DNA of 32,000 bases from an uncultured Eubacteriales bacterium (GTDB lineage Bacteria > Bacillota > Clostridia > Lachnospirales > Lachnospiraceae), in contig OMWY01000019.1 in the NCBI GenBank assembly GCA_900314885.1, forward strand, positions 7,297 to 39,296, given 5' to 3'. Positions 9,504 to 28,759 of this stretch are shown here, piece by piece (the first letter of the stretch is position 1; each line of letters starts with the position of its first letter). Under the pieces are notes generated by a model. The model was not told the origin of the DNA and made no database searches. It worked only from the letters and a program-made list of their open reading frames with translations. The position numbers were made by a program, and so were the translations under genes.

Positions 9504-10199
9504 ATGGACAAGAAAAACAAGATGGCTGGCTATGCCGCTAAAATCCGGGAACTTGAGAAGGGTGTCAGTACTAATCCTGAAACTCGCGATGAGAAGCTTC
9601 GCTGTAAGGAATGCCTTGAAAGGGAGCAGAAATATTTTATAGAAATAGGAAGACTTTACAGGGCTTTGATTCCTCATATTTACGCGAAGGATAAGAGGGT
9701 TCGTTATGGAGTTGAACCAGTAAATCAGGTTGAAATTCTTAACGGAAAATACAGTGACGATGGAGCTCTTGACACCATTAAGAAAATTATTCCGATTATT
9801 AAGAGTGATACCTTCAGAAGGTCATCGGCCATTACGAGCATTTATTTTTCCTGTGAAATGACTGACGATTTTTCGGGATGTGTTAACACTGTGTCTGTCG
9901 ATGGCGATAATATCGAGCCATCCGCGACAAACCAGGCATGGGGCCGCTATCGGGCGAGATATGACCTTAAGAAAAATAATGTGACCGGTGTCTTTGATTC
10001 GAAGGATACCTTCGAGGATCCTATCCCTGCGGAAATTATTGAGATAGTAAACGCGAGCGAAGAGGAAAATGATGAGCTGACAAGCAATATCAAGGCTCTC
10101 CTTAACGCGAAAAACCGTGGTGTCGATCTCATAAATAAGAACGGCAGAGGAAATGATACCATGACAAGGACTGATTTAATAAAAAATCTGTCCAAATAA
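9504..10199 (+). CDS. Hypothetical cytoplasmic protein
   Basis: 231-aa ORF preceded by AAGGAG. I recognise no family. Confidence 0.55.
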   Translation: MDKKNKMAGYAAKIRELEKGVSTNPETRDEKLRCKECLEREQKYFIEIGRLYRALIPHIYAKDKRVRYGVEPVNQVEILNGKYSDDGALDTIKKIIPIIKSDTFRRSSAITSIYFSCEMTDDFSGCVNTVSVDGDNIEPSATNQAWGRYRARYDLKKNNVTGVFDSKDTFEDPIPAEIIEIVNASEEENDELTSNIKALLNAKNRGVDLINKNGRGNDTMTRTDLIKNLSK

Positions 10200-10226
10200 A
10201 TGCCAATTACTACAGACATTTTTTAT

Positions 10227-10255
10227 TTGCTATTTGAACGCGTTAGGACTATAAT
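10227..10255 (+). promoter_or_regulatory. Candidate sigma-70 promoter for pgi
   Basis: TTGCTA (10227-10232), a 17-nt spacer, then a perfect TATAAT (10250-10255), about 55 nt upstream of the pgi ATG. Confidence 0.4.
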
Positions 10256-10308
10256 GAACTGTGGACCGCATAGCGGTATGGATTATACAATCAGGAGGAC
10301 AGATAATC

Positions 10309-11889
10309 ATGTTAAACTGGAAGAACTTTGACGAGCTTGAGTCTTACAAGGCACTTAAGAGCGTTAAGCCTGTGGAGCTTAAGGAAGTTATGGCAGGAGA
10401 GAGCGGAGCTAAGAGAGTTAAGGAAATGAGCGTTCCTATGGCTGCCGGTTTCTCTTATAATTACGCTGCTAAGGCTGTTGATGAGGATATCCTTAAGGCT
10501 CTTGTCAAGCTTGCGGATGAGGCGCAATTAGCTGAGAAATTCGAAGATCTTTACAACGGTGATGTTATAAATACAGGTGAGAAGCGTATGGTTCTTCACC
10601 ATTTAACAAGAGGTCAGCTTGGGAAGGATGTCGTTGCTGACGGCGTCAACAAGCGTGATTTCTATAAGGAACAGGTTAAGAGAATTGCTGATTTCGCAAA
10701 TGACGTGCATGCGGGAAAAATCGTAAACGAGAAGGGTGAGAAGTTTACGACTGTCTGCCAGATTGGTATAGGTGGTTCTGACCTTGGCCCTAGAGCTATG
10801 TATCTTGCTCTCGAGAACTGGGCTAAGATGGAAGGCTGCTTTAAGATGGACGCGCATTTCATCAGCAATGTAGATCCTGATGACGCGACAGCTGTCCTTA
10901 AGTCTATAGATGTAGCCAAGACCATTTTCATACTTGTATCTAAGTCAGGTACAACTCTTGAAACCCTTACAAATGAGGCATTTGTAAAGGATGCCCTTAC
11001 TAAGGCGGGCCTTGATTCATCAAAGCACATGATTGCGGTAACCAGTGAGACTTCTCCTCTCGCTAAGAATCCGGGATATCTTGCTGCCTTCTTCATGGAT
11101 GATTATATCGGAGGACGTTATTCTTCTACCTCAGCCGTAGGTGGCGCTGTACTTTCACTCGCCTTCGGTCCTGAGGTATTCGAGCGCTTCTTAAATGGCG
11201 CAGCGGCTGAGGATAAGCTTGCGACAGAGAAGGATCCTATGAAGAATCCAGATATGCTTGATGCCCTTATCGGTGTATATGAGAGGAACTTTATGGGTTA
11301 TGGCGCGAGCGCTGTTCTTCCGTATTCTCAGGCACTCAGCAGATTCCCGGCTCATTTACAGCAGCTTGATATGGAGTCAAACGGTAAGAGTGTAAACCGT
11401 TTCGGTGAGCCTCTTAACTACGTAACGGGTCCTGCTATATTCGGTGAACCGGGTACAAATGGCCAGCATTCATTCTACCAGCTTTTACACCAGGGAACTG
11501 ACATCATTCCTCTTCAGTTTGTTGCCTTCAAGAACAATCAGACCGGAAATGATGTAGATATCCAGGGTTCAACAAGTCAGAAGAAGCTTTGCGCTAATGT
11601 CGCGGCCCAGATCGTAGCGTTTGCCTGCGGAAAGCATGATGACAATAAGAATAAGAATTTCGTAGGAAACCGCCCATCAAGTATAATAATCGGTGATCAG
11701 GTTAATCCTGAGAGTCTCGGCGCTCTTCTTGCTCATTTTGAGAATAAGGTTATGTTCCAGGGATTTGTATGGAATGTAAACAGCTTTGACCAGGAAGGTG
11801 TTCAGCTTGGTAAGGTGCTCGCTAAGAGAGTACTTGCCCATGATACTGATGGCGCGCTTGCGGAGTACGCGAGGTTACTGGATATCTAA
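10309..11889 (+). CDS. pgi: Glucose-6-phosphate isomerase
   Basis: ATG at 10309 follows AGGAGG (10293-10298); the listed ORF starts at GTG 10261. Motifs GIGGSDLGPR, SKSGTTLET, ESNGK and GQHSFYQLLHQG are present. Confidence 0.92.
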   Translation: MLNWKNFDELESYKALKSVKPVELKEVMAGESGAKRVKEMSVPMAAGFSYNYAAKAVDEDILKALVKLADEAQLAEKFEDLYNGDVINTGEKRMVLHHLTRGQLGKDVVADGVNKRDFYKEQVKRIADFANDVHAGKIVNEKGEKFTTVCQIGIGGSDLGPRAMYLALENWAKMEGCFKMDAHFISNVDPDDATAVLKSIDVAKTIFILVSKSGTTLETLTNEAFVKDALTKAGLDSSKHMIAVTSETSPLAKNPGYLAAFFMDDYIGGRYSSTSAVGGAVLSLAFGPEVFERFLNGAAAEDKLATEKDPMKNPDMLDALIGVYERNFMGYGASAVLPYSQALSRFPAHLQQLDMESNGKSVNRFGEPLNYVTGPAIFGEPGTNGQHSFYQLLHQGTDIIPLQFVAFKNNQTGNDVDIQGSTSQKKLCANVAAQIVAFACGKHDDNKNKNFVGNRPSSIIIGDQVNPESLGALLAHFENKVMFQGFVWNVNSFDQEGVQLGKVLAKRVLAHDTDGALAEYARLLDI

Positions 11890-13176: not shown

Positions 13177-13213
13177 TAAGTAGATTGTAGAAGTCAATTA
13201 TGGGAGAGTGCTT

Positions 13214-16171
13214 ATGACTAATCTTAATTCAGTTGATTATAGTAAACAGGACAACAACGTAAGCGAACTTACTAAGGCAGAAAGCCCTGCCCTTAGAAGT
13301 TTAAAGGATGGTCCTGTTGATGATATACCCCAGGTGAAGAAGTTTGAAACGGTGATAGAGAGACCGATAGAGCTTACAAGGGCTAAGCTTCCTTCATCTG
13401 TAATTGAGAATACCAAGGAGCAGGAACGGGCTTCAAGGGAACTAAAAGAGGAAGCAGAGAATGAGGCATCTGCCTTCAAGGATATCGCAGGGAAGCTTAA
13501 CTCCGATAATCTGAAGGCACTTATGGATGATGGACTTAATGCCGGCGATTCAAAAGCGGACATTATTAAGAAGAGCGTTGATAATTTTAAGGAGCATCGT
13601 GAGAAAAAAAGGGAGTACACCGCGGCGGAGGCGGAACATTTAAAAGAAAGCGCCGAAAATGCTCGCTCTATGGGACTTAACGACGAAGAGCGAGAGATAG
13701 CGGAGAAGCTTGAGCAGTCAGGATTAGCGGTAACAAAGGAAAATATCGAAAAAGTTCAGGGCGCTTTGGAGCTTGCGGGAAACGCAGTTAAGAATCTCAC
13801 TGACAGCGGCAAGAGGTACCTGGTTTCAGAAAATAAGACTCAGTCGATAATAAATATTTACATGGCAGGGCATATTGCAGGCGATGCTTCTTCGATTGAG
13901 AGAAGCGCAGACGGAGACCTGTACACGGAATCTGCCGAGAATGAAAAGGCCTGGCAGGAGGTGCTGCCGCAGGCCCGCAACATTTTAGCGAACGAAGGTG
14001 TGCCGGTAGATGACGAGACACTTGGCGTTTCCAAATGGCTCTTCTTTAACGACATCCCTATAAATGCCGAAAATATCGCTGAAGCTCTCTCTCTTAATAA
14101 CCTTAAGGATGGCGTACCTAAGGATGAAACAGAAGTTAAAATCGTCGATACGATCGCTCTGGGCGAGAAGAGCTATGATGCGATTATCGGTGATGTTGAC
14201 GAGCGTAAGGCTTCTTATGTTGTAAATTATCTTTCGAATGTGAATGCCGACAGCATTAAGGACATTACGGCGAGACGGAAGCTAGAGGAGGCAAGGCTTG
14301 CCCTGACTTATGAATCAGCCCTCGGTATGATTAGGAAGGGGATAGATATTGATCTTAGCAATCTCGAAGGACTGGTTGAAAGTCTTAAGAAAACTGAAAG
14401 TGACTACTACGCAGGTCTCATCGAGAATGCCACTTACGATTCAGAGCTTTCGCGGGAAAATGAGGGCGAGAGCCCCGAAAAGGTACTTGAGAGACCTAAG
14501 CTTAGCCTTAGTGATCAGGTTGCCCTTATGTCGAAGGTTCTCACGGTCAGGAATTATGCTGTAAATATGCCACTTGACAGCGACTACATGACAGGCGCTG
14601 TGGGTGAGAGCGAAAAGAGCAACAATACGATAAACCTTGAGAGGTTCCATGAGGCGGGCCTTGCCTACGAGGCGAGCGGAACCGAGGTTAGAAGGAATCT
14701 CGGCGACAGCATGAGAAAGGCCTTCAGAAATGTTGATGAAATTATTTCTAAAAATGGCCTTACGCCTACTGAAGCGAACAGGACGGCAGTAAAGATGCTT
14801 GCCATGAATAACGCTGATATTACAAGAGCTTCCATCATTTCCATGAGGAGGTCTACTATAATCGCTACAACCGCTCTTAAGGGGCTTAAGCCGGCTACAG
14901 TAGCGGGATTGATAAAGAACGGCAGGAATCCTCTCGATATGTCAATGGAGGAGCTCTTTGAGACCGTGAAGGAGATAAATAATTCAGCGCCACAGTCTGA
15001 TGAAAGCTATGCGGCCTATTTATATAAGATTGAAAACAGGGGCGATATCACTGATGAGGAGCGTCAGGCTTATATAGGAATTTACAGGCTCTTAAATAAG
15101 CTGGAGCAAAATGATGGCGGCGATATAGGCTCGGTTGTCCTTGCGGGACGCGAGCTCACACTCAGAAATATGCTTTCAGCCGTAAGAAGCAGACGGCAGG
15201 CGGGCTTCGATGTCACGGTTGACGAGGACCTGGGCGAGCTTGCTGATTTTACGGAAGCTTCAAACAGGATCGACAGACAGATTGATGGCGCCTTTATTTC
15301 CGACATAGCGGCGAAGCTAAAGGATGAGCTATCTGAAGCGTCAGAGGACTACCTTAAGGATCAGAGCGCAGAGCTTGCTCGCTTCATGAGTGAAAACTCT
15401 GACAGTATGCAGGGTCTCATCACGGAAGGGGCGAAGCTGACGGCCTATAATCTTGCTGCCGAAAGCGACATCAGAAGGGGCAGGAAGTCAATTAATGCCA
15501 TAACCGAAAATCTGTCTGAGGATGATCTTGATGAGCTTGGTGGGAGCTCTGAGAAGTCCGTAGCGGAGATGGATGATCCGGAGAAATTAACTACTGACGT
15601 AGAGGCAATCAATGGAAAATTATCAGATAAGGCCGATGACCTTGCGGCTGCTGACAATATCACCTTTGATCGCTTCGCTGCCCTCCTTGCGGCAAAGAGA
15701 ACGCTTGCCTTATCAAGCGTAAGGATTCGAAGCGGGAAGTTCGATATCCCTGTATTTGTAAATAACAGGCTCGCGAACCTCTCTGTGTCGATAAATGAAG
15801 GAAGCAGCGGTTCAGAGAGGGGAAGCATAGACATTGCAATAGATGGTGACATAAATGGCTCATTTACTGTGAACGGTGATACGGTGAGTGGATTCATGGC
15901 TTCGGAGAATGAAAATATGTTGCAGGCCATGAGCGGAGCTCTGGATATGCTCACTGAAAATATTGAAAATTCGGGATTTCAGGCCGGAGAAATTTCATTT
16001 CACAATGTGAAGACGGTTCAGAATTCCGGAAACAATGTCGATAATAAGGATAGTAATGTTAAAACAAGGAAGCTGTACCGGGCGGCGAAGGTTATCGCCA
16101 CCTTTATGCTAGGGAGAGTAAGGGGTATGGCCGAAAATGGAACGGATTCCATGAGTACAGTTAAGGAGTGA
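13214..16171 (+). CDS. Large acidic, probably helical protein of unknown function with a FliK-like C-terminal region
   Basis: 985-aa ORF from ATG 13214 (GTG 13208 is also possible) after GGGAGAG. It ends 4 nt before the flagellin gene. Residues encoded at about 15740-16009 (FDIPVFVNN...IDIAIDGDINGSFTVNGDTVSGFMASENENMLQAMSGALDMLTENIENSGFQAGEISF) resemble the FliK C-terminal (Flg_hook) pattern. Confidence 0.7.
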   Translation: MTNLNSVDYSKQDNNVSELTKAESPALRSLKDGPVDDIPQVKKFETVIERPIELTRAKLPSSVIENTKEQERASRELKEEAENEASAFKDIAGKLNSDNLKALMDDGLNAGDSKADIIKKSVDNFKEHREKKREYTAAEAEHLKESAENARSMGLNDEEREIAEKLEQSGLAVTKENIEKVQGALELAGNAVKNLTDSGKRYLVSENKTQSIINIYMAGHIAGDASSIERSADGDLYTESAENEKAWQEVLPQARNILANEGVPVDDETLGVSKWLFFNDIPINAENIAEALSLNNLKDGVPKDETEVKIVDTIALGEKSYDAIIGDVDERKASYVVNYLSNVNADSIKDITARRKLEEARLALTYESALGMIRKGIDIDLSNLEGLVESLKKTESDYYAGLIENATYDSELSRENEGESPEKVLERPKLSLSDQVALMSKVLTVRNYAVNMPLDSDYMTGAVGESEKSNNTINLERFHEAGLAYEASGTEVRRNLGDSMRKAFRNVDEIISKNGLTPTEANRTAVKMLAMNNADITRASIISMRRSTIIATTALKGLKPATVAGLIKNGRNPLDMSMEELFETVKEINNSAPQSDESYAAYLYKIENRGDITDEERQAYIGIYRLLNKLEQNDGGDIGSVVLAGRELTLRNMLSAVRSRRQAGFDVTVDEDLGELADFTEASNRIDRQIDGAFISDIAAKLKDELSEASEDYLKDQSAELARFMSENSDSMQGLITEGAKLTAYNLAAESDIRRGRKSINAITENLSEDDLDELGGSSEKSVAEMDDPEKLTTDVEAINGKLSDKADDLAAADNITFDRFAALLAAKRTLALSSVRIRSGKFDIPVFVNNRLANLSVSINEGSSGSERGSIDIAIDGDINGSFTVNGDTVSGFMASENENMLQAMSGALDMLTENIENSGFQAGEISFHNVKTVQNSGNNVDNKDSNVKTRKLYRAAKVIATFMLGRVRGMAENGTDSMSTVKE

Positions 16172-16175
16172 GACT

Positions 16176-17603
16176 ATGAGAATTAACCATAATATGTCAG
16201 CGATTCGCGCTAACATGCATCTTTCCATTTCGAGCGACAGACTCTCTAAGAGCAGCGAGAAGCTTGCCAGCGGCTATAAGATTAATCACGCATTTGATGA
16301 CCCTGCGGGGCTCGCCATTTCCAATAAAATGCGTCTTCAGATAAAGTCACTTAAGAAGGCGACTGAGAATACCGGAAACGGAATCTCGGTTATGCAGATA
16401 GCTGATGGGGCGCTTGAGGAAGTGACCTCCATGATTCAGCGTATGAATGAGCTCTCTGTAAAGGCCGCGAACGGTACAAATTCAAATAACGACAGACAGA
16501 ATATCCAGGATGAAGTGAGCCAGCTGATGTCTGAGATAGACAGAATCGCTGAGACGACCGATTACAATACCATGAAGATTCTTAACGGTGATCTCGACAG
16601 GAGATGCATAACGAACACCGATGGTATAACCATGCAGAATGTCGGCATGGGAGTTGAGGATGGGAAATACCAGATAAAGATAGCAAGTGGAACTGACTTG
16701 AACTATCTGGATAAGAGTAATGTTAGCCTTGTGGATACTGATGCTACAGTCTCAAAATTCACTGATGTGACTCCTAAGCCTGTGATTACGGTAGAAGGCA
16801 CGAATACGAACTTCAAGGAAGAATCTACAACTTCGGAAACTGCGAATGATTCGGACACTTCAAGAACCTATGAGGCGACCGGTGACAGGAAGTTCGTAAA
16901 GGGCCGCATGCTTGATGATCCGAGAGTAGTTGTGACAGGAAAAGACGGATTCAGCATGGAATTCAGGCTGGATCTGGATGAGCTCTATAAGAAGAATAAA
17001 GATAACATTACATTTAAATATGAGTATTTTGATGGAACTGACACTTACACAAAGACAGTGGTGAATGGTGGAACGGCTACTTATACCGATAAGGCTGGGA
17101 ATGCTATTAACGATGCGGATATTAAAGCAAAGTTGGATGCCAGTGAACCAGCAAGCGCTAAGTATACCGGCGCCGACATCACCGTCACCGGTACTGTCCT
17201 TGACGCGGGCTACGCTACCCTCCAACTTGGCGCTAACACAGGCGAGGATATGGACGTCTATATCCCTAAGATTAGCACCGAGACCCTCGGTATAGAGGAT
17301 CTCGACGTCACAACCGAAAACGACGCTACAGAGGCAGTGAGGAAGGTCAGCACCGCCCTTGCGAACGTATCAAGCTTCAGAAGCAGACTCGGCGCCTATC
17401 AGAACCGCCTCGAGAGCACCTTAAGGAACAGCAACACAACCGTAGAGAATATGACCCAGTCACTCTCAAGGGTTATGGATACGGATATGGCTGAAGAGAT
17501 GACGGAATATACCCAGCTCCAGGTACTCGAGCAGGCAGGAACCAGCGTTCTTGCTGAGGCAAATCAGCGCCCTGAGACAATTCTTTCCATACTTCAGAGC
17601 TGA
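16176..17603 (+). CDS. fliC: Flagellin
   Basis: N-terminus MRINHNMSAIRANMHL...KLASGYKIN...DDPAGLAISNKM...NGISVMQIADGAL. C-terminus RSRLGAYQNRLESTLRN...LQVLEQAGTSVLAEANQRPETILSILQS. AAGGAG RBS. The central variable region is about 200 aa. Confidence 0.93.
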   Translation: MRINHNMSAIRANMHLSISSDRLSKSSEKLASGYKINHAFDDPAGLAISNKMRLQIKSLKKATENTGNGISVMQIADGALEEVTSMIQRMNELSVKAANGTNSNNDRQNIQDEVSQLMSEIDRIAETTDYNTMKILNGDLDRRCITNTDGITMQNVGMGVEDGKYQIKIASGTDLNYLDKSNVSLVDTDATVSKFTDVTPKPVITVEGTNTNFKEESTTSETANDSDTSRTYEATGDRKFVKGRMLDDPRVVVTGKDGFSMEFRLDLDELYKKNKDNITFKYEYFDGTDTYTKTVVNGGTATYTDKAGNAINDADIKAKLDASEPASAKYTGADITVTGTVLDAGYATLQLGANTGEDMDVYIPKISTETLGIEDLDVTTENDATEAVRKVSTALANVSSFRSRLGAYQNRLESTLRNSNTTVENMTQSLSRVMDTDMAEEMTEYTQLQVLEQAGTSVLAEANQRPETILSILQS

Positions 17604-17615
17604 TTGAGGTGAGAA

Positions 17616-18098
17616 ATGACCGCTGAAGAAATAAAAAATTTCAAAAATCGTATAACTTCCGCAAACAGGACTGGTCTAACCGTTATCATTTATGATATAA
17701 TAGACACTGACCTCACTGAAGCGGAAGAAAAGATTGCGATATCTGACAAGGAAGGAGCCAAGCATGCCCTTGCCCACGCAAGGAAATTCGTGACGGAGCT
17801 CCTTGTCACGCTCGATATGAAATACGAGCTCTCGTATAATCTCGCAAGTCTCTACATTTACGTAAATAAATGCATAAATTCTGCCTACGTGAGTCTTAAG
17901 GCAGAAAAAGTAACAGAAGCTGCGCGTATTATGAAGAGCCTCGGTGACGCATTCAGAAAGGTGGCCGAGACGGATGATAGCGCTCCCCTCATGGAGAATA
18001 CTGAGTCGGTATACGCGGGACTTACCTACGGAAAGGGAATGGAACCGGATGAGGCTGTGGTTGACGCGAATGAAGCGAACCGTGGCTTCCTGGTTTAG
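17616..18098 (+). CDS. fliS: FliS-like flagellin export chaperone with a C-terminal extension
   Basis: Sits immediately downstream of the flagellin. The pattern ITSANRTGLTVIIYDII...AHARKFVTELLVTLDMKYELSYNLASLYIYVNKCINSAY...LGDAFRKV follows the FliS four-helix template. Confidence 0.72.
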   Translation: MTAEEIKNFKNRITSANRTGLTVIIYDIIDTDLTEAEEKIAISDKEGAKHALAHARKFVTELLVTLDMKYELSYNLASLYIYVNKCINSAYVSLKAEKVTEAARIMKSLGDAFRKVAETDDSAPLMENTESVYAGLTYGKGMEPDEAVVDANEANRGFLV

Positions 18099-18105
18099 AA
18101 AAGGT

Positions 18106-19257
18106 ATGTTATTTTCATTTGATAAGAAGGCTTATGGCCTTATATTAAAAACTGCCGTGATTGTCGCGGCAGCTTTTTTTGCGGTACATTTACCTGAAGC
18201 CTATGCTTCTGAAAATGCGACAAGCGCGAGTCAGCCTGAAAACGCCTCCGGAAGCGCCGTGAAAAAGAAGAGCTTCAAGATAAAAGCATTTACGGCGGAG
18301 GGCGACCTCGTAGAGGTTGATACCGGCGTGACAAGGTCTGCCATAGAGGACTCTGTGCTTACGGCCTCGTGGAAACTGACGGGCTTCAAGGACGATGGGA
18401 AGACTGAGATATCGATTTATGCCGATACCGACAACAAGGGTTATGACGGTGATCTCATATACAGCGGTACGGGTGAAAAGAGTGGCAGCGCTATTTTGCT
18501 TGCCGGAGACCTTGCGACGGACGATTATTATTTTTATATAGAGGCCACAAGAAATGGCGTGACAAAGCGGAAATACACGGGAAAGTCCTTTCCTTTGGTA
18601 AATTATGAGGATATTTTGCCTGATTGCTCAGTTTCATTTAACAATGAAGAAGAGATAACAAATGATGACGTTCTTGCGGCTGATGTCTCCTTCGACGGAC
18701 ATTGCACGGTTACGGCCCTTGTAAATGACAATAAGGTCATAGACGCTTCAGGTGCGGTAGGGCGCTATAATATACCACTTTCAGAGGGTGAGAACAGCGT
18801 AGAGCTTATCGTTACCGGTGAAAATGGCAAGGGGAGGCATTTTACAGAGGATATAACTCTTGACACGGACCCGCCATACCTCCTTGTTTCGACTGATGTC
18901 GATGGGGCGGTTACGAGTGCTGAGACGGTTGATATTTCAGGAAATGTCGAGAAGGGCGCTCTTCTTACCGTAAATGATGAGACTATCCTGTATGACAGCG
19001 ATGGGAATTTCAGTACCACCGTAAAGCTTGACAATGGTAACAACATCGTTGACGTTAAGGCGGAGGATGAGGCCGGAAATATTAATAATTACCCGATGAC
19101 AGTCTACAGACGGCAGATCAGGCAGAACAAGAGAAACAAGAAGGCTGCGATATTTGTCGGGGGGTTGTTCGGCATTATTATTTTCGGGTACATTTTCTTC
19201 TTTATAAAGTGGATTAGAAAACATCGCCGTCTTGACAAAAAGAAGAATAGAAAGTAG
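18106..19257 (+). CDS. Secreted, C-terminally membrane-anchored protein with Ig-like repeats
   Basis: Signal peptide MLFSFDKKAYGLILKTAVIVAAAFFAVHLPEAYA|SE (an alternative ATG at 18070 would overlap fliS). Ig-like repeat pattern (SEGENSVELIVTGENG; GNNIVDVKAEDEAGN). C-terminal TM helix plus a basic tail, with no LPXTG. Confidence 0.68.
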   Translation: MLFSFDKKAYGLILKTAVIVAAAFFAVHLPEAYASENATSASQPENASGSAVKKKSFKIKAFTAEGDLVEVDTGVTRSAIEDSVLTASWKLTGFKDDGKTEISIYADTDNKGYDGDLIYSGTGEKSGSAILLAGDLATDDYYFYIEATRNGVTKRKYTGKSFPLVNYEDILPDCSVSFNNEEEITNDDVLAADVSFDGHCTVTALVNDNKVIDASGAVGRYNIPLSEGENSVELIVTGENGKGRHFTEDITLDTDPPYLLVSTDVDGAVTSAETVDISGNVEKGALLTVNDETILYDSDGNFSTTVKLDNGNNIVDVKAEDEAGNINNYPMTVYRRQIRQNKRNKKAAIFVGGLFGIIIFGYIFFFIKWIRKHRRLDKKKNRK

Positions 19258-22103: not shown

Positions 22104-22153
22104 GTTGCGAGAAAGATGGTTGGAGGAAATTAAAAAAAATTACAGATATCGGT

Positions 22154-22178
22154 TAAGTTTTTTTGGGGGGGTCGATAT
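22154..22178 (+). promoter_or_regulatory. Candidate sigma-28 (FliA/SigD)-type promoter for the flagellin-pilus operon
   Basis: GTCGATAT (22171-22178) matches 7 of 8 positions of GCCGATAT. TAAG (22154-22157) serves as the -35. The spacer is 13 nt against a consensus of about 15 and consists of T7G6. It lies 35 nt upstream of the ATG. Confidence 0.45.
22158..22171. repeat. Back-to-back homopolymers T7 then G7
   Basis: Read directly from the sequence: ...aagTTTTTTTGGGGGGGtcgatat... Confidence 0.95.
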
Positions 22179-22212: not shown

Positions 22213-24279
22213 ATGATTGCTATATCGTACAATGCCGCGGCAGCAAACGCTTCGAGGCATTTTAAAGTAAATACGAAAGACCAGTCGAAGAACTTAGAGA
22301 AGCTCTCCTCCGGTTACAGAATAAACAGGTCAGCGGATGACGCGACCGGTCTTTCGATCTCTGAGAAGATGCGTACCCTCATCAGGGGACTCAGTCAGGC
22401 TACAGATAACTGTCAGGACGGAATCTCTATGCTACAGGTAGCTGACGGATCACTTGCTGAAATGACCAGCATGATGCACCGCATGACTGAGCTTTCTGTA
22501 AAGTCAGCGAATGGCACCAACTCTCAAAAAGACCGACAGATACTACAGAATGAGATAAAGCAGCTTAAACTTGAGATAAACGGCCAGGTTGAGAAGACAA
22601 AGTTTAACGATATTAAGATCTTCGATCCATCGGGAATGAACGGTGTGGCTGATGCTTTTATTGGCACTGCCACCGGTACGCCTGCGGATGATTCCATAAC
22701 AAATTATTCGTTCGGAGCGGATGGAAACGGAATAAGTATAAATGGCACAACATTTCCATATGAGGATATAAAGAATTCAGCCGGTGAACCTATGAGCTCG
22801 CTGAAAGATGGAACTTACAAACTGAGGTACAACGGTGTAACATTTCCCTTAACCATTAAGAATGTGAGTGACAGGAGCCAATTGACGCAGCTGGTGGGAG
22901 CGTTTTCGGTTACGAGTGAAAAGAAGGAAGCCCTTCCAGCGAGAAAGGCAGTAGAATCAGCTTCATTTTCTTTTGATCCTGTTGCTGGCGCAGACATCAA
23001 AGATGGCACAAAATTTGTCATAAAGGCTGACAGCGATGGAATAAACGGGAGATTTAAATGGAAAGATCTCTGCCCGGCTTTAGCGGAAGGCAAGGATCTC
23101 GGGGCCAACCAGATTACAATATCTGTTCCTATACAGAAGGGTGTAAGCTTTGACATAAAAGTTAATAATGGCGCCAAGCTTGAGCAAGTGGTTGATTCAA
23201 TAAATAATTTTTCGGCAACGGTGAAAGCAGGGCAGATAAAAGGTATAGACGTTACAAGATTTTTCTCAGGCTATACAATTACAGGAGGCCAGTTGCCGGT
23301 TAATCTTACAAGTAATACCAGTAAGACCTTTGACTGGAGCCTTCCGGGAGATCCTGCAAATGATGATGCTTTAAAGGACATCGCAAAAAAGCTCAATTGT
23401 GACGTGACTGATCTGACAGGCGGTGACTTAAAAATATATTTTCAGAACAAGAATGGATATAATGTACCGACAGCCGTGCTGACCGCAAAAAGTTCAAAAG
23501 GAGGCCAGGGCTCGGTCACTTATACTATGTCTAAGGAAGATAGCGATAGCTTAAAAGCCCTGTTACAGCCGGGAAATGCTTTCCCTATAAAAAGTCATGT
23601 AGCTGATGCTAAGTTTAGTTATAAAGGAAGTTCGTTTGTAGGTCATCTTATCGCAATAAGAGATGTCACCGGAACGGAAATTCCCGGGCGTGGGCCCGGC
23701 ATATTGTTTAACAGCAATAATATTCCTTCGAAGGTGGAATTTAATATTAGTCATGAAAGTGTTCTTAACTCAAATGGTGAAGTGAAGTCAATGGAGGAAG
23801 GAAATATTCTTCCACCCCAGTATAAATACAACTTCGATACATTTGAAAGTGAATCTCTTTATGATCCTGACTATCCTAAGAACAAATGGTGGATTCAGTC
23901 AGGCGAGGGAACCATGAACGGTATGATGCTTTCCGTGGGGCAGGTTAGCTGTAATCTGCTGGGGCTCGACGACATGGATATTTCGACGGAAAACGGAGCT
24001 ACCCAGGGCATAAGACAGACGGGAAAGGCTCTTAAGACTCTTAGTAAGATTCGTTCCGAACTTGGAGCTGAGCAGAACCGCTTAGAGCATACAGTGTTAA
24101 ATAATAAGAACGCGGTAGAAAATACTACTGCTTCCGAATCTCTTATAAGAGATACCGATATGAGTACGGCTATGGTTTCGTTCCACAAGTTAAATATACT
24201 TGAAATGACAGGTGAGAGCATGTTGGCTCAGGCAAATAAAAATCCTGAGGATGTACTGAAGCTCTTGGAGACAAAGTAA
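22213..24279 (+). CDS. Flagellin-family protein with a very large (~400 aa) central insert
   Basis: GGAAGGAGGA RBS. N-terminal D0/D1 region: KLSSGYRINRSADDATGLSISEKMRTLIRGLSQATDNCQDGISMLQVADGSL...SVKSANGTNSQKDRQILQNEIKQL. C-terminal region: IRSELGAEQNRLEHTVLNNKN...IRDTDMSTAMVSFHKLNILEMTGESMLAQANKNPEDVLKLLE. Confidence 0.88.
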   Translation: MIAISYNAAAANASRHFKVNTKDQSKNLEKLSSGYRINRSADDATGLSISEKMRTLIRGLSQATDNCQDGISMLQVADGSLAEMTSMMHRMTELSVKSANGTNSQKDRQILQNEIKQLKLEINGQVEKTKFNDIKIFDPSGMNGVADAFIGTATGTPADDSITNYSFGADGNGISINGTTFPYEDIKNSAGEPMSSLKDGTYKLRYNGVTFPLTIKNVSDRSQLTQLVGAFSVTSEKKEALPARKAVESASFSFDPVAGADIKDGTKFVIKADSDGINGRFKWKDLCPALAEGKDLGANQITISVPIQKGVSFDIKVNNGAKLEQVVDSINNFSATVKAGQIKGIDVTRFFSGYTITGGQLPVNLTSNTSKTFDWSLPGDPANDDALKDIAKKLNCDVTDLTGGDLKIYFQNKNGYNVPTAVLTAKSSKGGQGSVTYTMSKEDSDSLKALLQPGNAFPIKSHVADAKFSYKGSSFVGHLIAIRDVTGTEIPGRGPGILFNSNNIPSKVEFNISHESVLNSNGEVKSMEEGNILPPQYKYNFDTFESESLYDPDYPKNKWWIQSGEGTMNGMMLSVGQVSCNLLGLDDMDISTENGATQGIRQTGKALKTLSKIRSELGAEQNRLEHTVLNNKNAVENTTASESLIRDTDMSTAMVSFHKLNILEMTGESMLAQANKNPEDVLKLLETK

Positions 24280-24289
24280 CGGGGGATAA

Positions 24290-24508
24290 ATGACAGCTAC
24301 TAATATCAAGGATGTCAGCGACCACATAAAGAAAATGAAATTCCGTCGAAAGGTTTTTGGCGGAGTTGATGAGCGAGATGTGTGGCGGCAGATAAAACTG
24401 CTCGATGATGATTACAGGAACCTGTACAGGATCCTCTGTGAAGAATATCAGAAAAACATAGAACTTATGAAGCAGAGGAGTAATGGGGAAGTCAAAACAA
24501 GACAGTAA
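24290..24508 (+). CDS. Small DivIVA-domain protein
   Basis: 72-aa ORF 10 nt after the flagellin stop (GGGGGAT RBS). KFRRKVFGGVDERDVWRQIKLLDDDYRNL follows the DivIVA/GpsB N-terminal pattern F-x4-(R)GY-x3-(E)VD-x-FL-x6-DY-x2-L. Confidence 0.55.
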   Translation: MTATNIKDVSDHIKKMKFRRKVFGGVDERDVWRQIKLLDDDYRNLYRILCEEYQKNIELMKQRSNGEVKTRQ

Positions 24509-25070
24509 AAGCACACGTAAGCCAAGTATATGGGAATGGTGGCCGACTGAGAAAGCCATAGAAGCAAGATATGAGAGAGCGGTCTGGCATGAAGAAATAA
24601 TCTCATTTTTGATGAGATTATTTGCTCTGATAGCTCTGCTTGTGATTCTGTTCCTCATGGTATTTGGTATATTTACCGAAGATGACATGGAAATGTCGCC
24701 TGCGGTGAGAGCCGGTGATCTTGCTATATATCAAAGGGGAATTAAGGAGTTCAGGCTCGAAGATGTGCTCATATATGAGGCTGATGGGAAAGAAAGAATC
24801 GGCAGGGTGGTAGCGAGGCCAACCGACACGGTTGAAATTACCTCGGAAGGCGCCGTAAAGGTTAATGGCTACGTCCAGATTGAGGAGAGAATAACCAATG
24901 GTACTTCTATCGAGCCAGGCGTAAGCTATCCGCTTACACTTAAGGCCGATGAGTATTTTATACTGGCAGATGCGCGCGGAGATGCGAAGGACAGCAGGCT
25001 TTTTGGCCCCGTTAGTAGGGACCATATACTAGGAAGAGTTGCATTTCTTTTACGCATGGATGATTTCTAA
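24483..25070 (+). CDS. Signal peptidase I (S26) homologue with a substituted catalytic dyad; SipA/LepA-like pilus assembly factor candidate
   Basis: AGAGGAG RBS. One TM helix (LFALIALLVILFLMVFGIF). S26 boxes are recognisable: DMEMSPAVRAGD (box B/C), ERIGRVVARPTDTV (box D) and YFILADARGDAKDSRLFGPV...ILGRV (box E). Ungapped alignment puts Glu at the nucleophile Ser position and Gly at the general-base Lys position. Confidence 0.78.
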   Translation: MGKSKQDSKSTRKPSIWEWWPTEKAIEARYERAVWHEEIISFLMRLFALIALLVILFLMVFGIFTEDDMEMSPAVRAGDLAIYQRGIKEFRLEDVLIYEADGKERIGRVVARPTDTVEITSEGAVKVNGYVQIEERITNGTSIEPGVSYPLTLKADEYFILADARGDAKDSRLFGPVSRDHILGRVAFLLRMDDF

Positions 25071-25093: not shown

Positions 25094-26467
25094 ATGAAGA
25101 AAATCATTCGGAAAGTTATAGTTACCATGGTTATGGCATCTACTATGGTAACTATGCTGTGGACAAGTCCACCGGGTAGAAACGCAGAGGCTGCGAGTGA
25201 TGGATTAAGCTTTGATCAGCAGATAAAAGCCAATGATGTAACCGACGGTAGTCATATAAGCGGAATTACGACGCCGGATTTTAAAGTAGAATACAGGCTT
25301 GATCCCATACTTAACGTTAGTTCAAATGATAAGAGGTATGAAACCGACCTTGCGAATTATCCGGATGGGAGTGTTAAGGATGCTACAGGTGTAATAAATT
25401 ATACCAAGGAAATTACTTCGAAGATCACGGATGCATCAGGTATCGCAAGTGCGGAAATTTCCGCTAATGATATATTTAACGGTAAAAAATTTGCGGAAAA
25501 CAGCAAGGTTTATCGTTATAACGTGAGCATTGTTGGTCTATATGTAAAGGAGAATGATACTACCTGGAGCAGTAGTAACCTGCTTAATTCTCCTGACAGT
25601 GGAATAGTTGTTCCGCATATTACGCCGATTATGGATGTTTCGATAGACAGCGATGGTAAGATAGCTCAGATTGCTATGTGGGATTCTTCAGGAACATCTA
25701 AGACGAGTGGTTTTGTAGCAAGGAACAGTTCCGGGAACGGTAATCCTTTTATTGCTACTGTGTACGCCGATGATGGTTCCGGAGCTATAGAATACAACAC
25801 CAACGATGTAGTAATTACGTCTGATTATATCGGCGGAAATTGGGACAGTATTCATGGCGGTATATCATATTCTGTGACCTTTACCAACCTGCCTTATTAT
25901 CTTGTATCAAGCGATGCTGTATTTGAAAGTCTGATTGTTGGCACGAACGCAAGAAGCTGGAAGGCTGAGAGCGGGAATACAACAGCTAAGGCCGTGGCTC
26001 TAGGTACACTTGATCAAACTGATGAGATTACTTTTCATGGTATTCCGGCTGTCGATGGAGCGGGAAATAAGGTGACTTATTCATCAACCATTCATTTTGA
26101 AAATCTTGATAAGGATGAGTCCTTGAAGAAGCAATATGCTTCAGCCATCTTTTATGGGGCTGTCGCCGACCGTATTTCCTCTGTAAGCTCACTTGCCGAA
26201 TTCGCTTCCTCCGGACAGTCGGTTGGATATGATAATAATGCGTATAAGCAGGGAGAAGATTATCGTACCATAGGCGCTTCTGAAGTTTCTGCAACAAGCG
26301 TAAACGCAAACAGGTTCGTCATTTTTGATCCTGATCAGCTTGTAGTAGTCGGTGTAGTAAAAAATTCTGCTCCTGCCGTATTTATGATAATAGCAGGGAT
26401 ACTGATTCTCATGCTTCTCTTAATAGGAAGGAGACACGAGGATAATTACCATTTTAAAAGGAGGTAA
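25094..26467 (+). CDS. Pilin-like sortase-substrate candidate 1 (non-LPXTG C-terminal sorting signal)
   Basis: Signal peptide ending AEA|AS. C-terminus has the conserved block RFVIFDPDQLVVVGVVKNSAPAVF, then a hydrophobic helix MIIAGILILMLLLIG, then the basic tail RRHEDNYHFKRR. It is a paralogue of the next gene. Confidence 0.68.
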   Translation: MKKIIRKVIVTMVMASTMVTMLWTSPPGRNAEAASDGLSFDQQIKANDVTDGSHISGITTPDFKVEYRLDPILNVSSNDKRYETDLANYPDGSVKDATGVINYTKEITSKITDASGIASAEISANDIFNGKKFAENSKVYRYNVSIVGLYVKENDTTWSSSNLLNSPDSGIVVPHITPIMDVSIDSDGKIAQIAMWDSSGTSKTSGFVARNSSGNGNPFIATVYADDGSGAIEYNTNDVVITSDYIGGNWDSIHGGISYSVTFTNLPYYLVSSDAVFESLIVGTNARSWKAESGNTTAKAVALGTLDQTDEITFHGIPAVDGAGNKVTYSSTIHFENLDKDESLKKQYASAIFYGAVADRISSVSSLAEFASSGQSVGYDNNAYKQGEDYRTIGASEVSATSVNANRFVIFDPDQLVVVGVVKNSAPAVFMIIAGILILMLLLIGRRHEDNYHFKRR

Positions 26468-26473
26468 ATAAAA

Positions 26474-27829
26474 ATGGGAAAGAAATGGACTAAAGTAATG
26501 ATAAGCGTGGCTTCTGCCGGTATGCTTGCCATAAGTATGCTTACGGCGATGCCAGCAAGACAGGTGAAGGCGGCAAGCACAACAAGCTTTAAGCAGGAGA
26601 TTATTGTAAATGATGTAACTGATGGAAATCATACCGCTAAGGTAAAGATGCCAAAGATTACAGTTACGTACCGCCTGACACCTGTTGTAGATAGCGCAGG
26701 CCTGCCTGCTAATGACTCTCGTTACGCGGATAAATTGGATTTATTTATTAACGGCAGCGTAAAGGATTCGACCAAAGTTGTTGAAACATCTGTAGTTATT
26801 GAAGATAATGTAGCATCAGATGATGAGGGCCATTATGTAAAAGACATAACCCCTGATGATATTGGCTTAACCGGATTTGTAAATGCCAGCAGGGTATACA
26901 GATATAAGATAGAGATTTCGGGTGTTTATCGTGGTGACGATACGAAGGATGACGCACATAATCTGTTAAAATTATCTCAGGATGATTTTACTTTCCCTGA
27001 GAATCAGTTAGGAATTCTGGATGTTTCTGTGGATACAGATAAAAAGGTGGCAGCTATCGCCTTCTGGAATTCGACAGGGACCAACAAACTTGATGGATTT
27101 ACCGGTGCTGAAGGTGATGGAGCGGATGCCTTTAAATATAACGTAGCGGATCTCCAGATATCATCGGATTATATAGGTAAGAACTGGGACAGCTTACATG
27201 GCGGTTTCGTCTATACCGTTAAAATTGATAAGCTTCCGAACGATACCTTTAAGCAAGCTAAAGATGTGAAAGATTGCTTATATGATGATGGACGTAGTTG
27301 GGACGTAAGTGCCTCAAATGGCTGGACACCGGGAACGAGTACAAGTACAATAATTCTTGAAGGTACGTTGGATCAGAATTCGCAAATACTGATTGGGGGG
27401 CTTCCTAAAGGCGTTACATACTTAGGCACTATTGATTTTACTAAACTTGAAAAAGCTGTGGTAGGTAATACGACGGAAGATTTGAGAGCGAAATATGGTC
27501 CTGCCATATTCTATGGAGCGAAGGTAAAGCGAGTAGAAGGGATTAATGATATGACTTCTTTTGCCGGAAGCGAATATGCCGGAAAGTATGAGTATAAGGC
27601 CTATGAAACGGGAAAGGATACAAGAGCGCTTGATAATGCAAGCGAGGTAGTACTTGAAAATAATGGTGATTCCAATTCAAGCCGTTTTATTATCTTCGAC
27701 CCATCCGATCTCGTAGTTGTTGGTGTCGTAAGAAATACATTACCGGCTGTAGGGCTTATATGTATCGCCGGAGCTATTGCGATAGCGCTCTTCTTCACAA
27801 GAAAGAAAAAGCTGCCTGTAATTGAGTGA
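26474..27829 (+). CDS. Pilin-like sortase-substrate candidate 2 (LPAVG-type C-terminal sorting signal)
   Basis: Signal peptide ending VKA|AS. C-terminus RFIIFDPSDLVVVGVVRNTLPAVG, then LICIAGAIAIALFF, then TRKKK. It shares blocks with the upstream paralogue (NDVTDG.H, VYRY, DVS.D.D.K.A.IA.W.S.GT, SDYIG.NWDS.HGG, AIFYGA). Confidence 0.68.
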   Translation: MGKKWTKVMISVASAGMLAISMLTAMPARQVKAASTTSFKQEIIVNDVTDGNHTAKVKMPKITVTYRLTPVVDSAGLPANDSRYADKLDLFINGSVKDSTKVVETSVVIEDNVASDDEGHYVKDITPDDIGLTGFVNASRVYRYKIEISGVYRGDDTKDDAHNLLKLSQDDFTFPENQLGILDVSVDTDKKVAAIAFWNSTGTNKLDGFTGAEGDGADAFKYNVADLQISSDYIGKNWDSLHGGFVYTVKIDKLPNDTFKQAKDVKDCLYDDGRSWDVSASNGWTPGTSTSTIILEGTLDQNSQILIGGLPKGVTYLGTIDFTKLEKAVVGNTTEDLRAKYGPAIFYGAKVKRVEGINDMTSFAGSEYAGKYEYKAYETGKDTRALDNASEVVLENNGDSNSSRFIIFDPSDLVVVGVVRNTLPAVGLICIAGAIAIALFFTRKKKLPVIE

Positions 27830-27846
27830 TTATTTTAAGAACTTTT

Positions 27847-27876
27847 ACCGGGATCACGGACTGTCGCGATCCCGGT
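27847..27876 (+). promoter_or_regulatory. Stem-loop between pilin gene 2 and the sortase gene (partial terminator or mRNA-stability element candidate)
   Basis: ACCGGGATC (27847-27855) / GATCCCGGT (27868-27876) with a 12-nt loop, followed by the interrupted T-rich stretch TATGTTATTTAT. Confidence 0.4.
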
Positions 27877-27912
27877 TATGTTATTTATAAGACAGATAAG
27901 GAGATGATGACC

Positions 27913-28677
27913 ATGAGGTTTTTAGCAGGATTATCAAGGACCGGAGATAAATTTATAAGGATAATTCTTGAGATAATAATGGTCATTTTCTTCTTGCTTG
28001 GCGGATATATTTTGTGGCATACGTGGATGGTTTATCATTCAGCTTTTGACCTGTCGGGAGTGGAGCAGTATAAGCCTGAATTAGCGGAAGAGGGTATGAG
28101 CCTCGAAGAAATCAGAAAAATAAATCCAGATGTGATAGGGTGGATATCCATAGATGGCACGCATATAGATTACCCTCTGCTTCAAGGACGCGATAACCAG
28201 GAATATTTAAATAAGGATATTAATGGTGATTTTGCCCTCCATGGATCAATATATCTCGATTCATTAAATAACCGAGACTTTTCTGACAGTTATAATATTA
28301 TTTATGGTCACCATATGGATAATGGTGGCATGTTTGGTGATATTGTAAAATTTAAGGATGAAAAATATTTTGAGAGTCACGAAAGCGGAAACCTGTGGCT
28401 TAAGAATAAGACATATAAACTTGAAATATGCGCAATAATGATGGAAGATGCTTATGACAGGGAGTTTACAGGCCCAAAAGGAAAGGATTCCGATATAACG
28501 GATTTTATGAAAACAGTATATAGCAGGGCGATTTATTCGAGACCTGTCGAGGTAAGTTCAGCTGATCGCTTAGCAGGACTCCTAACCTGCGACTCAGCAT
28601 TTACAAATGGGAGAAATATCCTAGTATGTAAGCTGGTACCGGAAAAAGATGATGATACTGTGCATATATTAAAATAG
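27913..28677 (+). CDS. srtB: Class B sortase
   Basis: ATG at 27913 lies 9 nt after AAGGAG; in-frame ATGs at 27904 and 27907 are also possible, and the listed ORF starts at 27826. There is an N-terminal TM helix. Motifs: INPDVIGWISIDGTHIDYPLLQGRDNQEYLNKD, IIYGHHM (catalytic His), LLTCDS (catalytic Cys) and GRNILV (Arg). The layout closely parallels S. aureus SrtB as I recall it. Confidence 0.88.
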   Translation: MRFLAGLSRTGDKFIRIILEIIMVIFFLLGGYILWHTWMVYHSAFDLSGVEQYKPELAEEGMSLEEIRKINPDVIGWISIDGTHIDYPLLQGRDNQEYLNKDINGDFALHGSIYLDSLNNRDFSDSYNIIYGHHMDNGGMFGDIVKFKDEKYFESHESGNLWLKNKTYKLEICAIMMEDAYDREFTGPKGKDSDITDFMKTVYSRAIYSRPVEVSSADRLAGLLTCDSAFTNGRNILVCKLVPEKDDDTVHILK

Positions 28678-28728: not shown

Positions 28729-28759
28729 AAAAGAGCCGTGCAATGCACGGCTCTTTTTT
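28729..28759. terminator. Bidirectional rho-independent terminator between srtB and murG (copy 2 of the duplicated palindrome)
   Basis: AAAA-GAGCCGTGCA-A-TGCACGGCTC-TTTTTT, with the stem at 28733-28742 / 28744-28753. The T-run touches the murG stop codon. Confidence 0.8.

Follow-up and report, generated by a model that had tools for sequence, protein, structure and literature searches.

A signal peptidase homologue without its Ser/Lys dyad beside a class B sortase in a Lachnospiraceae genome: a likely SipA-type pilus assembly factor

What is the role of a protein that has the fold of signal peptidase I but has lost both residues of the catalytic dyad? This question is raised by a gene in a 32,000-nucleotide stretch of DNA (hereafter the window; overall GC content 45%) from an uncultured Eubacteriales bacterium of the Lachnospiraceae (GenBank assembly GCA_900314885.1, contig OMWY01000019.1, positions 7,297 to 39,296 of the forward strand). 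The product of this gene, here called the SipA-like protein, has an Arg/Lys-rich cytoplasmic N-terminal tail, spans the membrane once (helix at about residues 44-64) and exposes a domain of the S26 fold to the outside. The signal peptidase fold is kept, the Ser/Lys dyad is lost and the gene is under strong purifying selection; its operon is tight and also contains the genes for a class B sortase and for two proteins whose predicted fold comes closest to the major pilin of Streptococcus pyogenes. We consider it likely that this protein is of the SipA/LepA type, anchored in the membrane, catalytically dead and acting as a non-proteolytic pilus assembly factor. The coordinates of all features are collected in Table 1.

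The assignment to the S26 family comes from profile and structure comparisons. The protein matches Pfam PF10502 (Peptidase_S26) with 64.8 bits (cut-off 22.9, E-value 1e-17) and the NCBIfam model TIGR02227, "signal peptidase I", with 74 bits (cut-off 47), and with such scores a chance match is excluded for the predicted protein. With the type I signal peptidases LepB, SpsB and SipS it has in common the family by profile, the topology and recognisable boxes B to E. The best PDB matches to its sequence are SipA (4n31, E-value 5e-20) and LepA (4k8w, 1e-18), with the active peptidases at a great distance (SpsB, 7e-5), and the alignment with SipA 4n31 runs without a gap over 134 residues at approximately 33% identity. 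An AlphaFold2 model, made with 21 sequences in the alignment and with a predicted local distance difference test score (pLDDT) of 73.5, consists of a long N-terminal helix, of which the membrane anchor is a part, and a beta-rich domain after it. SipA 4n31 is also the best fold match of this model (template modelling score (TM-score) 0.78-0.81 on the target, root mean square deviation 3.4 Å, 33% identity), while SpsB and LepB rank behind it. Because the match passes the TIGR02227 cut-off, annotation pipelines will call the gene an active "signal peptidase I", which it cannot be.

The positions of the dyad were fixed by three independent alignments. When S26 genes from further genomes were aligned pairwise by tblastn, 48 had Ser opposite E70 and Lys opposite G107. 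In a family alignment of 20 database homologues of the SipA-like protein (25-99% identity), the Ser and Lys of P0020 (S-M-E-P and I-K-R), the sole true peptidase among them, fall in the same two columns. In the alignment with SipA 4n31, the Asp of D-M-S-P pairs with E70 and the Gly of V-G-R with G107. Superposition of crystal structures equates Asp48 and Gly85 of SipA with Ser90 and Lys145 of Escherichia coli (PMC4049620). A preliminary description of this DNA had placed Glu70 at the nucleophile and Gly107 at the general-base position and had read box E as degraded from GDNR to ADAR with DSR kept; every residue and codon named there was found as stated. In comparison with a type I signal peptidase, Ser and Lys are both replaced and box E has changed from GDNR to ADAR. 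Judged from its sequence, the protein lacks both catalytic residues and should not be filed as signal peptidase I.

The same pattern is known from a functional protein. SipA of S. pyogenes has lost the dyad to an acidic residue and Gly and is essential for pilus polymerisation (PMC4049620), in agreement with what the preliminary description had said of SipA/LepA. Among the database homologues of the SipA-like protein, the box D Lys is missing in 19 of 20 (G, A or C instead; the exception is P0020), and the nucleophile position varies between E, A, D, G and, once, S. The five nearest orthologue clusters (58-61% identity), which derive from metagenome contigs, have A-M-A-P in box B, and thus neither Ser nor an acidic residue. 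It might be supposed that the protein is still an active peptidase that processes the signal peptides of the adjacent pilins via other residues; Ser72, in a register shifted by two, could for example pair with K88 or K103, or the mechanism could be based on Glu. The fold and the scaffold of the substrate cleft are kept, Ser72 and several Lys are present, and Ser is retained at the nucleophile position in some relatives (P0009, L005 and L006). However, the nearest orthologues have A-M-A-P, the family alignment has no invariant Ser or Lys column, and K88 and K103 are unconserved. Furthermore, the D61A/S and K98A mutants of SipA still supported polymerisation and no peptidase activity was found (PMC4049620). 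This explanation is rejected for want of a conserved Ser or Lys and is, in our view, very improbable; the register shift at Ser72 that had been raised in the preliminary description falls with it.

A decaying, functionless duplicate of lepB would likewise have lost both catalytic residues and would show a degraded box E. However, many lineages, some with only about 33% identity, have kept the open reading frame (ORF) of the SipA-like protein intact, and between two orthologues the rate of nonsynonymous substitution (dN) is 0.10 against a synonymous rate (dS) of 1.37, a dN/dS of about 0.07. The gene order around it, with sortase and pilins, is strictly conserved in more than 10 lineages, and the same substitutions occur in the functional SipA (PMC4049620). 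On the grounds of dN/dS and conservation the pseudogene explanation is rejected, and we give it the least credence of all the alternatives. No second S26 gene or separate intact lepB is present within the window.

The gene neighbourhood points in the same direction. A scan of GTDB representative genomes with the SipA-like protein as query gave 80 S26 loci, of which six have a class B sortase gene just downstream; these belong to metagenome-assembled genomes (MAGs) of Oscillospiraceae, Blautia (two), Mageeibacillus, Egerieicola and Lachnoclostridium, and their SipA-like proteins are 37-43% identical to the query. Loss of the box D Lys combined with a query match above 100 bits is found in exactly these six sortase-linked loci. 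In the other 74, Lys is kept in 71 and replaced by Arg in three, and a class B sortase is adjacent in none. Since the loss of Lys coincides exactly with an adjacent class B sortase and the neighbouring genes fit, the SipA-type reading is supported, and with it the proposal of the preliminary description that the same degeneration near a class B sortase signals an equivalent chaperone role, for which the likeness to SipA speaks as well. The reliable mark of the pilus-associated clade is the loss of the box D Lys, not that of the Ser, and the SipA family reaches well past the streptococci into gut and rumen bacteria of the Lachnospiraceae and Oscillospiraceae type.

S26 homologues in which the box D Lys is present while the nucleophile is replaced by Glu or Asp were seen in L022, L024, L037, L041, L051, L057, L072 and L080 (I-G-E-M-N-P ... 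I-K-R-I-I-G-L-P-G-E; S26 genes at about 10001-10500 in most). They are mostly from Lachnospiraceae (Coprococcus comes, Sellimonas and others) and have no adjoining class B sortase; by these motifs they are a different kind of dyad variant.

The layout of the relatives with PxTG-type signals (L001-L006) comprises a large adhesin, the sipA-like gene, a pilin of approximately 350 amino acids and srtB, with a small pilin of approximately 220 amino acids in four of the six, which is the gene order of the streptococcal FCT region (adhesin, sipA, pilin, srtB, basal pilin). xPxTG-x6-P(Y/F) signals are present in all six, and each of the three loci that were scanned (L001, L002 and L004) has a match to Pfam FctA, VWA or DUF7601.

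In the window, the sortase is assigned to class B by its match to TIGR03064 (186 bits, cut-off 153.75). Its catalytic residues are intact, with His in G-H-H135-137, Cys229 in L-L-T-C and Arg237 in N-G-R, and align with those of 4y4q. This structure, deposited only as "Sortase, SrtB family", is the closest solved relative (E-value 3e-47), followed by the pilus sortase Spy0129 of S. pyogenes (3psq, 1e-38), and sortases of the NPQTN type rank behind both. The two proteins encoded between the sipA-like gene and the sortase gene each start with an ordinary Sec signal peptide, cleavable at an AxA site, and end in a hydrophobic segment with a basic tail. As they match no family library, their identity as pilins is drawn from predicted fold and context. 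The AlphaFold2 model of pilin A, from a shallow alignment of eight rows, has a pLDDT of 61 and a predicted TM-score of 0.63, and its top 18 matches in Foldseek are Spy0128 (the S. pyogenes major pilin), other T-antigens and PitB, the shaft pilin of pneumococcal pilus islet 2 (E-values down to 2e-10, probability 1.0); the assembly of these shaft pilins depends on SipA.

The pilin family is small, with 20 cluster representatives among 1.84 billion proteins, and all members end in N-x-R-F-x-x-F-D-P-x-x-L-(V/I)-(V/I)-V-G-V-x5-P, followed by a transmembrane helix and Arg/Lys. In 18 full-length members with a mean column identity of 32%, the residues R407, D412, V419, G420 and P427 (numbering of pilin A) are invariant, as are K203 and G206. 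K203, in the motif K-x-x-G-F/Y, is the sole invariant Lys and is located near the end of the N-terminal domain, as is Lys161 in Spy0128. Because the G-x6-P spacing of the window pilins equals that of the PxTG-x6-P pilins in L001-L006, L-V-V-V-G takes the place of x-P-x-T-G, with V419-G420 in register with T-G. Val, which is isosteric with Thr, stands at the position of the scissile Thr. To our knowledge, Pro and Thr define every characterised sortase motif. The residue two positions before the catalytic Cys of the sortase is Leu or Val in 9/9 members of the window clade (L227 in the window, codon 28582-28584) and Ser in 6/6 of the PxTG clade, and together with the L-V-V-V-G signal this suggests a co-evolved change of specificity. 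If true, a sortase signal without Pro and Thr would widen the known specificity of sortases and could serve sortase-based ligation.

How does this locus compare with pilus systems that are known to use SipA? The SipA proteins (SipA1/SipA2, also called LepA; 4n31 and 4k8w), including that of the pneumococcal pilus islet 2 (PI-2), combine an S26 fold with an N-terminal membrane anchor, have an acidic residue in place of Ser and Gly in place of Lys, and are encoded between pilin genes near a class B sortase. All of this is equally true of the window protein, which shows every SipA/LepA-type feature that is open to computation. There are also differences. The window protein comes from a Clostridia-type genome with relatives in Lachnospiraceae and Oscillospiraceae MAGs rather than from a streptococcus; it is paired with a conserved small DivIVA-like ORF; its client pilins are without PxTG; and the equivalent of SipA Lys83 is Arg105, which is unconserved. 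On its cytoplasmic side it also carries a conserved extension, about 40 residues long and rich in Arg, whereas streptococcal SipA has only a short N-terminal segment. The best solved matches for the SipA-like factor, the pilin fold and, after 4y4q, the sortase all lie in the FCT-2/3 pili of S. pyogenes and the PI-2 pilus of Streptococcus pneumoniae, so that the best solved counterparts of the window system are found in the two SipA-using pilus systems. The sortase of PI-2 is named SrtG1. In S. pyogenes, Spy0129 recognises (E/Q/V)(V/P)PTG and joins the Thr to Lys161 (PMC3019223), whereas the window pilins have L-V-V-V-G and the window sortase belongs to the group with Leu or Val, not Ser, two residues before the catalytic Cys. 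A published clostridial precedent that combines a signal peptidase homologue with a class B sortase is the pilus operon of Clostridium perfringens, which its authors called syntenic with streptococcal pilus loci. However, the pilins of that locus, one for the shaft and one for the base, and its tip adhesin have recognised sorting signals, while the window has two paralogous L-V-V-V-G pilins, no adhesin or base pilin, and a flagellin gene attached. The window system would work like an FCT/PI-2 pilus but lacks two of its features: there is no PxTG motif, and tip and basal pilins are missing.

The attached flagellin is a constant companion. A long flagellin gene is directly upstream in all seven lineages for which upstream DNA is available (window, L081-83, L084-85, L086, L089, L091 and L092), separated from the module by 0-90 nucleotides or by one gene for an acidic surface protein, while the outer flanks vary by lineage. 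No flagellin is present in any of the six PxTG loci. The central domain of the module-linked flagellins, of about 440 amino acids, is conserved among them (27-38% identity, E-values down to 1e-89) and was found in only three clusters of a database of 5.8 billion proteins, including those of the window's own and the L081 flagellin. Upstream of the window flagellin there is a sigma-28-like promoter. A scan with a relaxed sigma-28 pattern detected full -35 and -10 elements upstream of the window and L081 flagellins, the exact pattern TAAA-N-CCGATA had no match upstream of the window flagellin, and for L084 and L091 only -10-like boxes were read by eye. In the literature we found nothing specific on flagellin combined with a class B sortase and a signal peptidase, or on SipA in Lachnospiraceae or Ruminococcus. 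The genetic coupling of a flagellin subfamily to a putative sortase-assembled fibre offers a testable lead.

Several points weigh against a pilus assembly role. We infer the chaperone role of the SipA-like protein from SipA, and the model of pilin A is only moderately confident, with TM-scores to pilins of 0.25-0.39 despite the low E-value. Pilins A and B have no match in Pfam (including FctA), NCBIfam or PHROGs, and a conserved Lys/Asn pair for internal isopeptide bonds was not seen in them. Their sorting signal is without Pro and Thr, with helix and basic tail present. The window has no genes for a tip adhesin or a basal pilin but only the two paralogous pilins, and a simple pilus model leaves the strict flagellin linkage unexplained. 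These points could mean that the protein is a SipA-type factor whose product is not a classical pilus, but wall- or membrane-anchored monomers or a structure tied to the flagellum with its long flagellin. Such a product would fit the non-canonical V-V-G instead of P-x-T-G, the missing tip and basal pilins and FctA match, and the rare flagellin subfamily that precedes the module in 7/7 lineages with a co-occurring central domain and, in the window, follows a sigma-28-like promoter and adjoins the module without a gap. However, the predicted fold, the sortase type and the SipA type all indicate an FCT/PI-2 pilus, and a single invariant Lys together with an invariant V-G is what a polymerising pilin needs. 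Moreover, flagellin leaves the cell by the flagellar export channel, beyond the reach of a membrane sortase. We therefore regard a non-pilus product as unlikely, albeit less so than the two explanations rejected above.

For a SipA-type assembly factor, we propose the following course of events. The SipA-like protein would act outside the membrane, as in the FCT and PI-2 pili, where it would hold membrane-tethered pilin precursors and present them to the sortase. Removal of the AxA signal peptides from the pilins would require another signal peptidase, an active one with its gene at a different place in the genome. Cleavage of the C-terminal sorting signal by the sortase would take place probably at V419|G420 of L-V-V-V-G, and the sortase would then link the new carboxyl group to the next subunit at its invariant Lys (K203 in pilin A, K205 in pilin B). 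The Arg-rich tail of the SipA-like protein may be a docking site for the small cytoplasmic protein encoded upstream, and the module is probably transcribed together with the upstream flagellin from the sigma-28-type promoter. Three features of the locus appear to be new, namely the L-V-V-V-G pilin signal, the conserved DivIVA-like ORF upstream, and the long flagellin, in the window with a sigma-28-like promoter, ahead of the module in 7/7 lineages.

A more far-reaching proposal, which we offer tentatively and with clear reservation, is that these genes make up an undescribed, rare six-gene module, in which the sortase has switched to a V|G signal without Pro and Thr and the fibre is functionally coupled to the flagellum. 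The members of this module would be a long flagellin that is expressed via sigma-28 and has a central domain of its own, in some cases an acidic surface protein, a small cytoplasmic protein resembling DivIVA/GpsB, the SipA-like protein, one or two T-antigen-like pilins and a class B sortase. The switch in sortase specificity would be matched by the change from Ser to Leu/Val beside the catalytic Cys, and the coupling to the flagellum could mean, for example, that an adhesive fibre is expressed together with a specialised flagellar filament and at the same site.

The small ORF of 72 amino acids has homologues directly upstream of the sipA-like gene in L081, L084, L086, L088, L089, L091, L092, L093, L001 and L004, and is kept in all members of the window clade and in two PxTG loci. 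Its likeness to DivIVA is weakly suggested by Pfam matches, all of them below threshold (E-values 0.012-0.033), and no GpsB or DivIVA structure was returned by a profile search against PDB sequences. Where the ORF is present, the SipA-like protein also has the conserved Arg-rich extension at its cytoplasmic N-terminus (W-x-T-E-x-A-I-x-R-R), and L002, L003 and L006 are without both. The encoded protein may be a GpsB-like adaptor; as a possible cytoplasmic partner of SipA it might indicate how SipA works. A similar start, MxFKRRxxGGLDEEDV, the same motif as that of the window ORF, is found in a coiled-coil protein of 268 amino acids in L007 (979-2323), from a Coriobacteriaceae MAG, where it is followed by an S26 gene with an intact Ser/Lys dyad. 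The L007 locus also holds two candidate sortase genes, read from the sequence only, and a protein with an LPLTG motif.

Table 1. Features of the sipA-like locus in the window and of related loci (positions count from the first nucleotide of the window or of the locus named).
Feature	Coordinates	Strand	Description
Sigma-28/SigD-like promoter	22153..22178	+	TTAAG-N13-GTCGATAT; end about 35 nucleotides before flagellin ATG; consensus match only
Long flagellin	22213..24279	+	688 amino acids; Flagellin_N and Flagellin_C; ends 10 nucleotides upstream of small ORF
Small cytoplasmic ORF	24290..24508	+	72 amino acids; motif MKFRxKxFGGVDExDVW; overlaps sipA-like start by 26 nucleotides; weakly DivIVA/GpsB-like
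SipA-like pseudo-signal-peptidase gene	24483..25070	+	195 amino acids; open ORF; PF10502, TIGR02227, PDB matches, AlphaFold2
Box B	24690..24701	+	E70-M71-S72-P73; Glu in Ser nucleophile position
Box D	24798..24827	+	I106-G107-R108-V-V-A-R-P-T-D115; Gly in Lys general-base position; G107 codon 24801-24803
Box E	24966..24998	+	A-D-A-R-G-D-A-K-D-S-R; degraded, GDNR to ADAR (A162-D163-A164-R165); D170-S171-R172 kept
Pilin-like protein A	25094..26467	+	457 amino acids; Sec signal peptide (...AEA|AS), two beta-rich domains, C-terminal sorting signal
Sorting-signal core, pilin A	26312..26374	+	R-F-V-I-F-D-P-D-Q-L-V-V-V-G-V-V-K-N-S-A-P, then transmembrane helix and basic tail
Pilin-like protein B	26474..27829	+	451 amino acids; paralogue of A (38% identity), same architecture; invariant Lys is K205
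Sorting-signal core, pilin B	27683..27745	+	R-F-I-I-F-D-P-S-D-L-V-V-V-G-V-V-R-N-T-L-P
Stem-loop, then U-rich stretch	27847..27875	+	between pilin B and sortase gene; RNA fold -21 kcal/mol, z = -2.4
Class B sortase	27904..28677	+	257 amino acids from ATG 27904; TIGR03064; start from orthologue alignment
Strong terminator-like hairpin	28729..28757	+	13 pairs and T run; operon end after sortase gene
Module-linked flagellins	L081 5641-7755; L084 5025-7139; L091 3477-5492		671-704 amino acids
Module-linked flagellin fragments	L086 3-98; L089 1-1203; L092 1-501		at contig edge
Acidic surface protein	L086 127-2268; L088 3-1652; L089 1209-2138; L091 5493-6467; L092 591-2105; L093 3-737		

From the flagellin through pilin B, the genes of the operon overlap or are separated by gaps of at most 10 nucleotides. 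The GTG at 27826 that was listed mechanically as the start of the sortase gene is probably not the true start, and ATG 27904 is backed by the orthologues and by a GGAG ribosome-binding site. Since the start moves to ATG 27904, the spacer 27826-27903 is freed for the hairpin upstream of the sortase gene, which is possibly an attenuator that lowers the expression of the sortase relative to the pilins.

The more distant clade members have, downstream of the flagellin gene and before the small ORF, a gene for a surface protein that is extremely acidic and rich in repeats. A signal peptide, a conserved domain at the C-terminal end and a transmembrane helix followed by basic residues were recognised in this protein, and the copy in L089 contains P-P-L-T-G. 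The window is without this gene and has the second pilin paralogue instead.

The window also contains a second flagellar sub-locus (13208-18098) with a DUF6240 protein of 987 amino acids, a flagellin of 475 amino acids and FliS. The window's other flagellin is without the central domain of about 440 amino acids. We take the organism to be probably motile, with the module-linked flagellin as an additional, specialised copy. At 17944-19257, with a listed start that overlaps the end of fliS, lies a gene for a protein of 437 amino acids. This protein is composed of a signal peptide, an Ig domain similar to those of glucodextranase B and cadherin, and, at the C-terminus, a transmembrane helix and a poly-basic tail.

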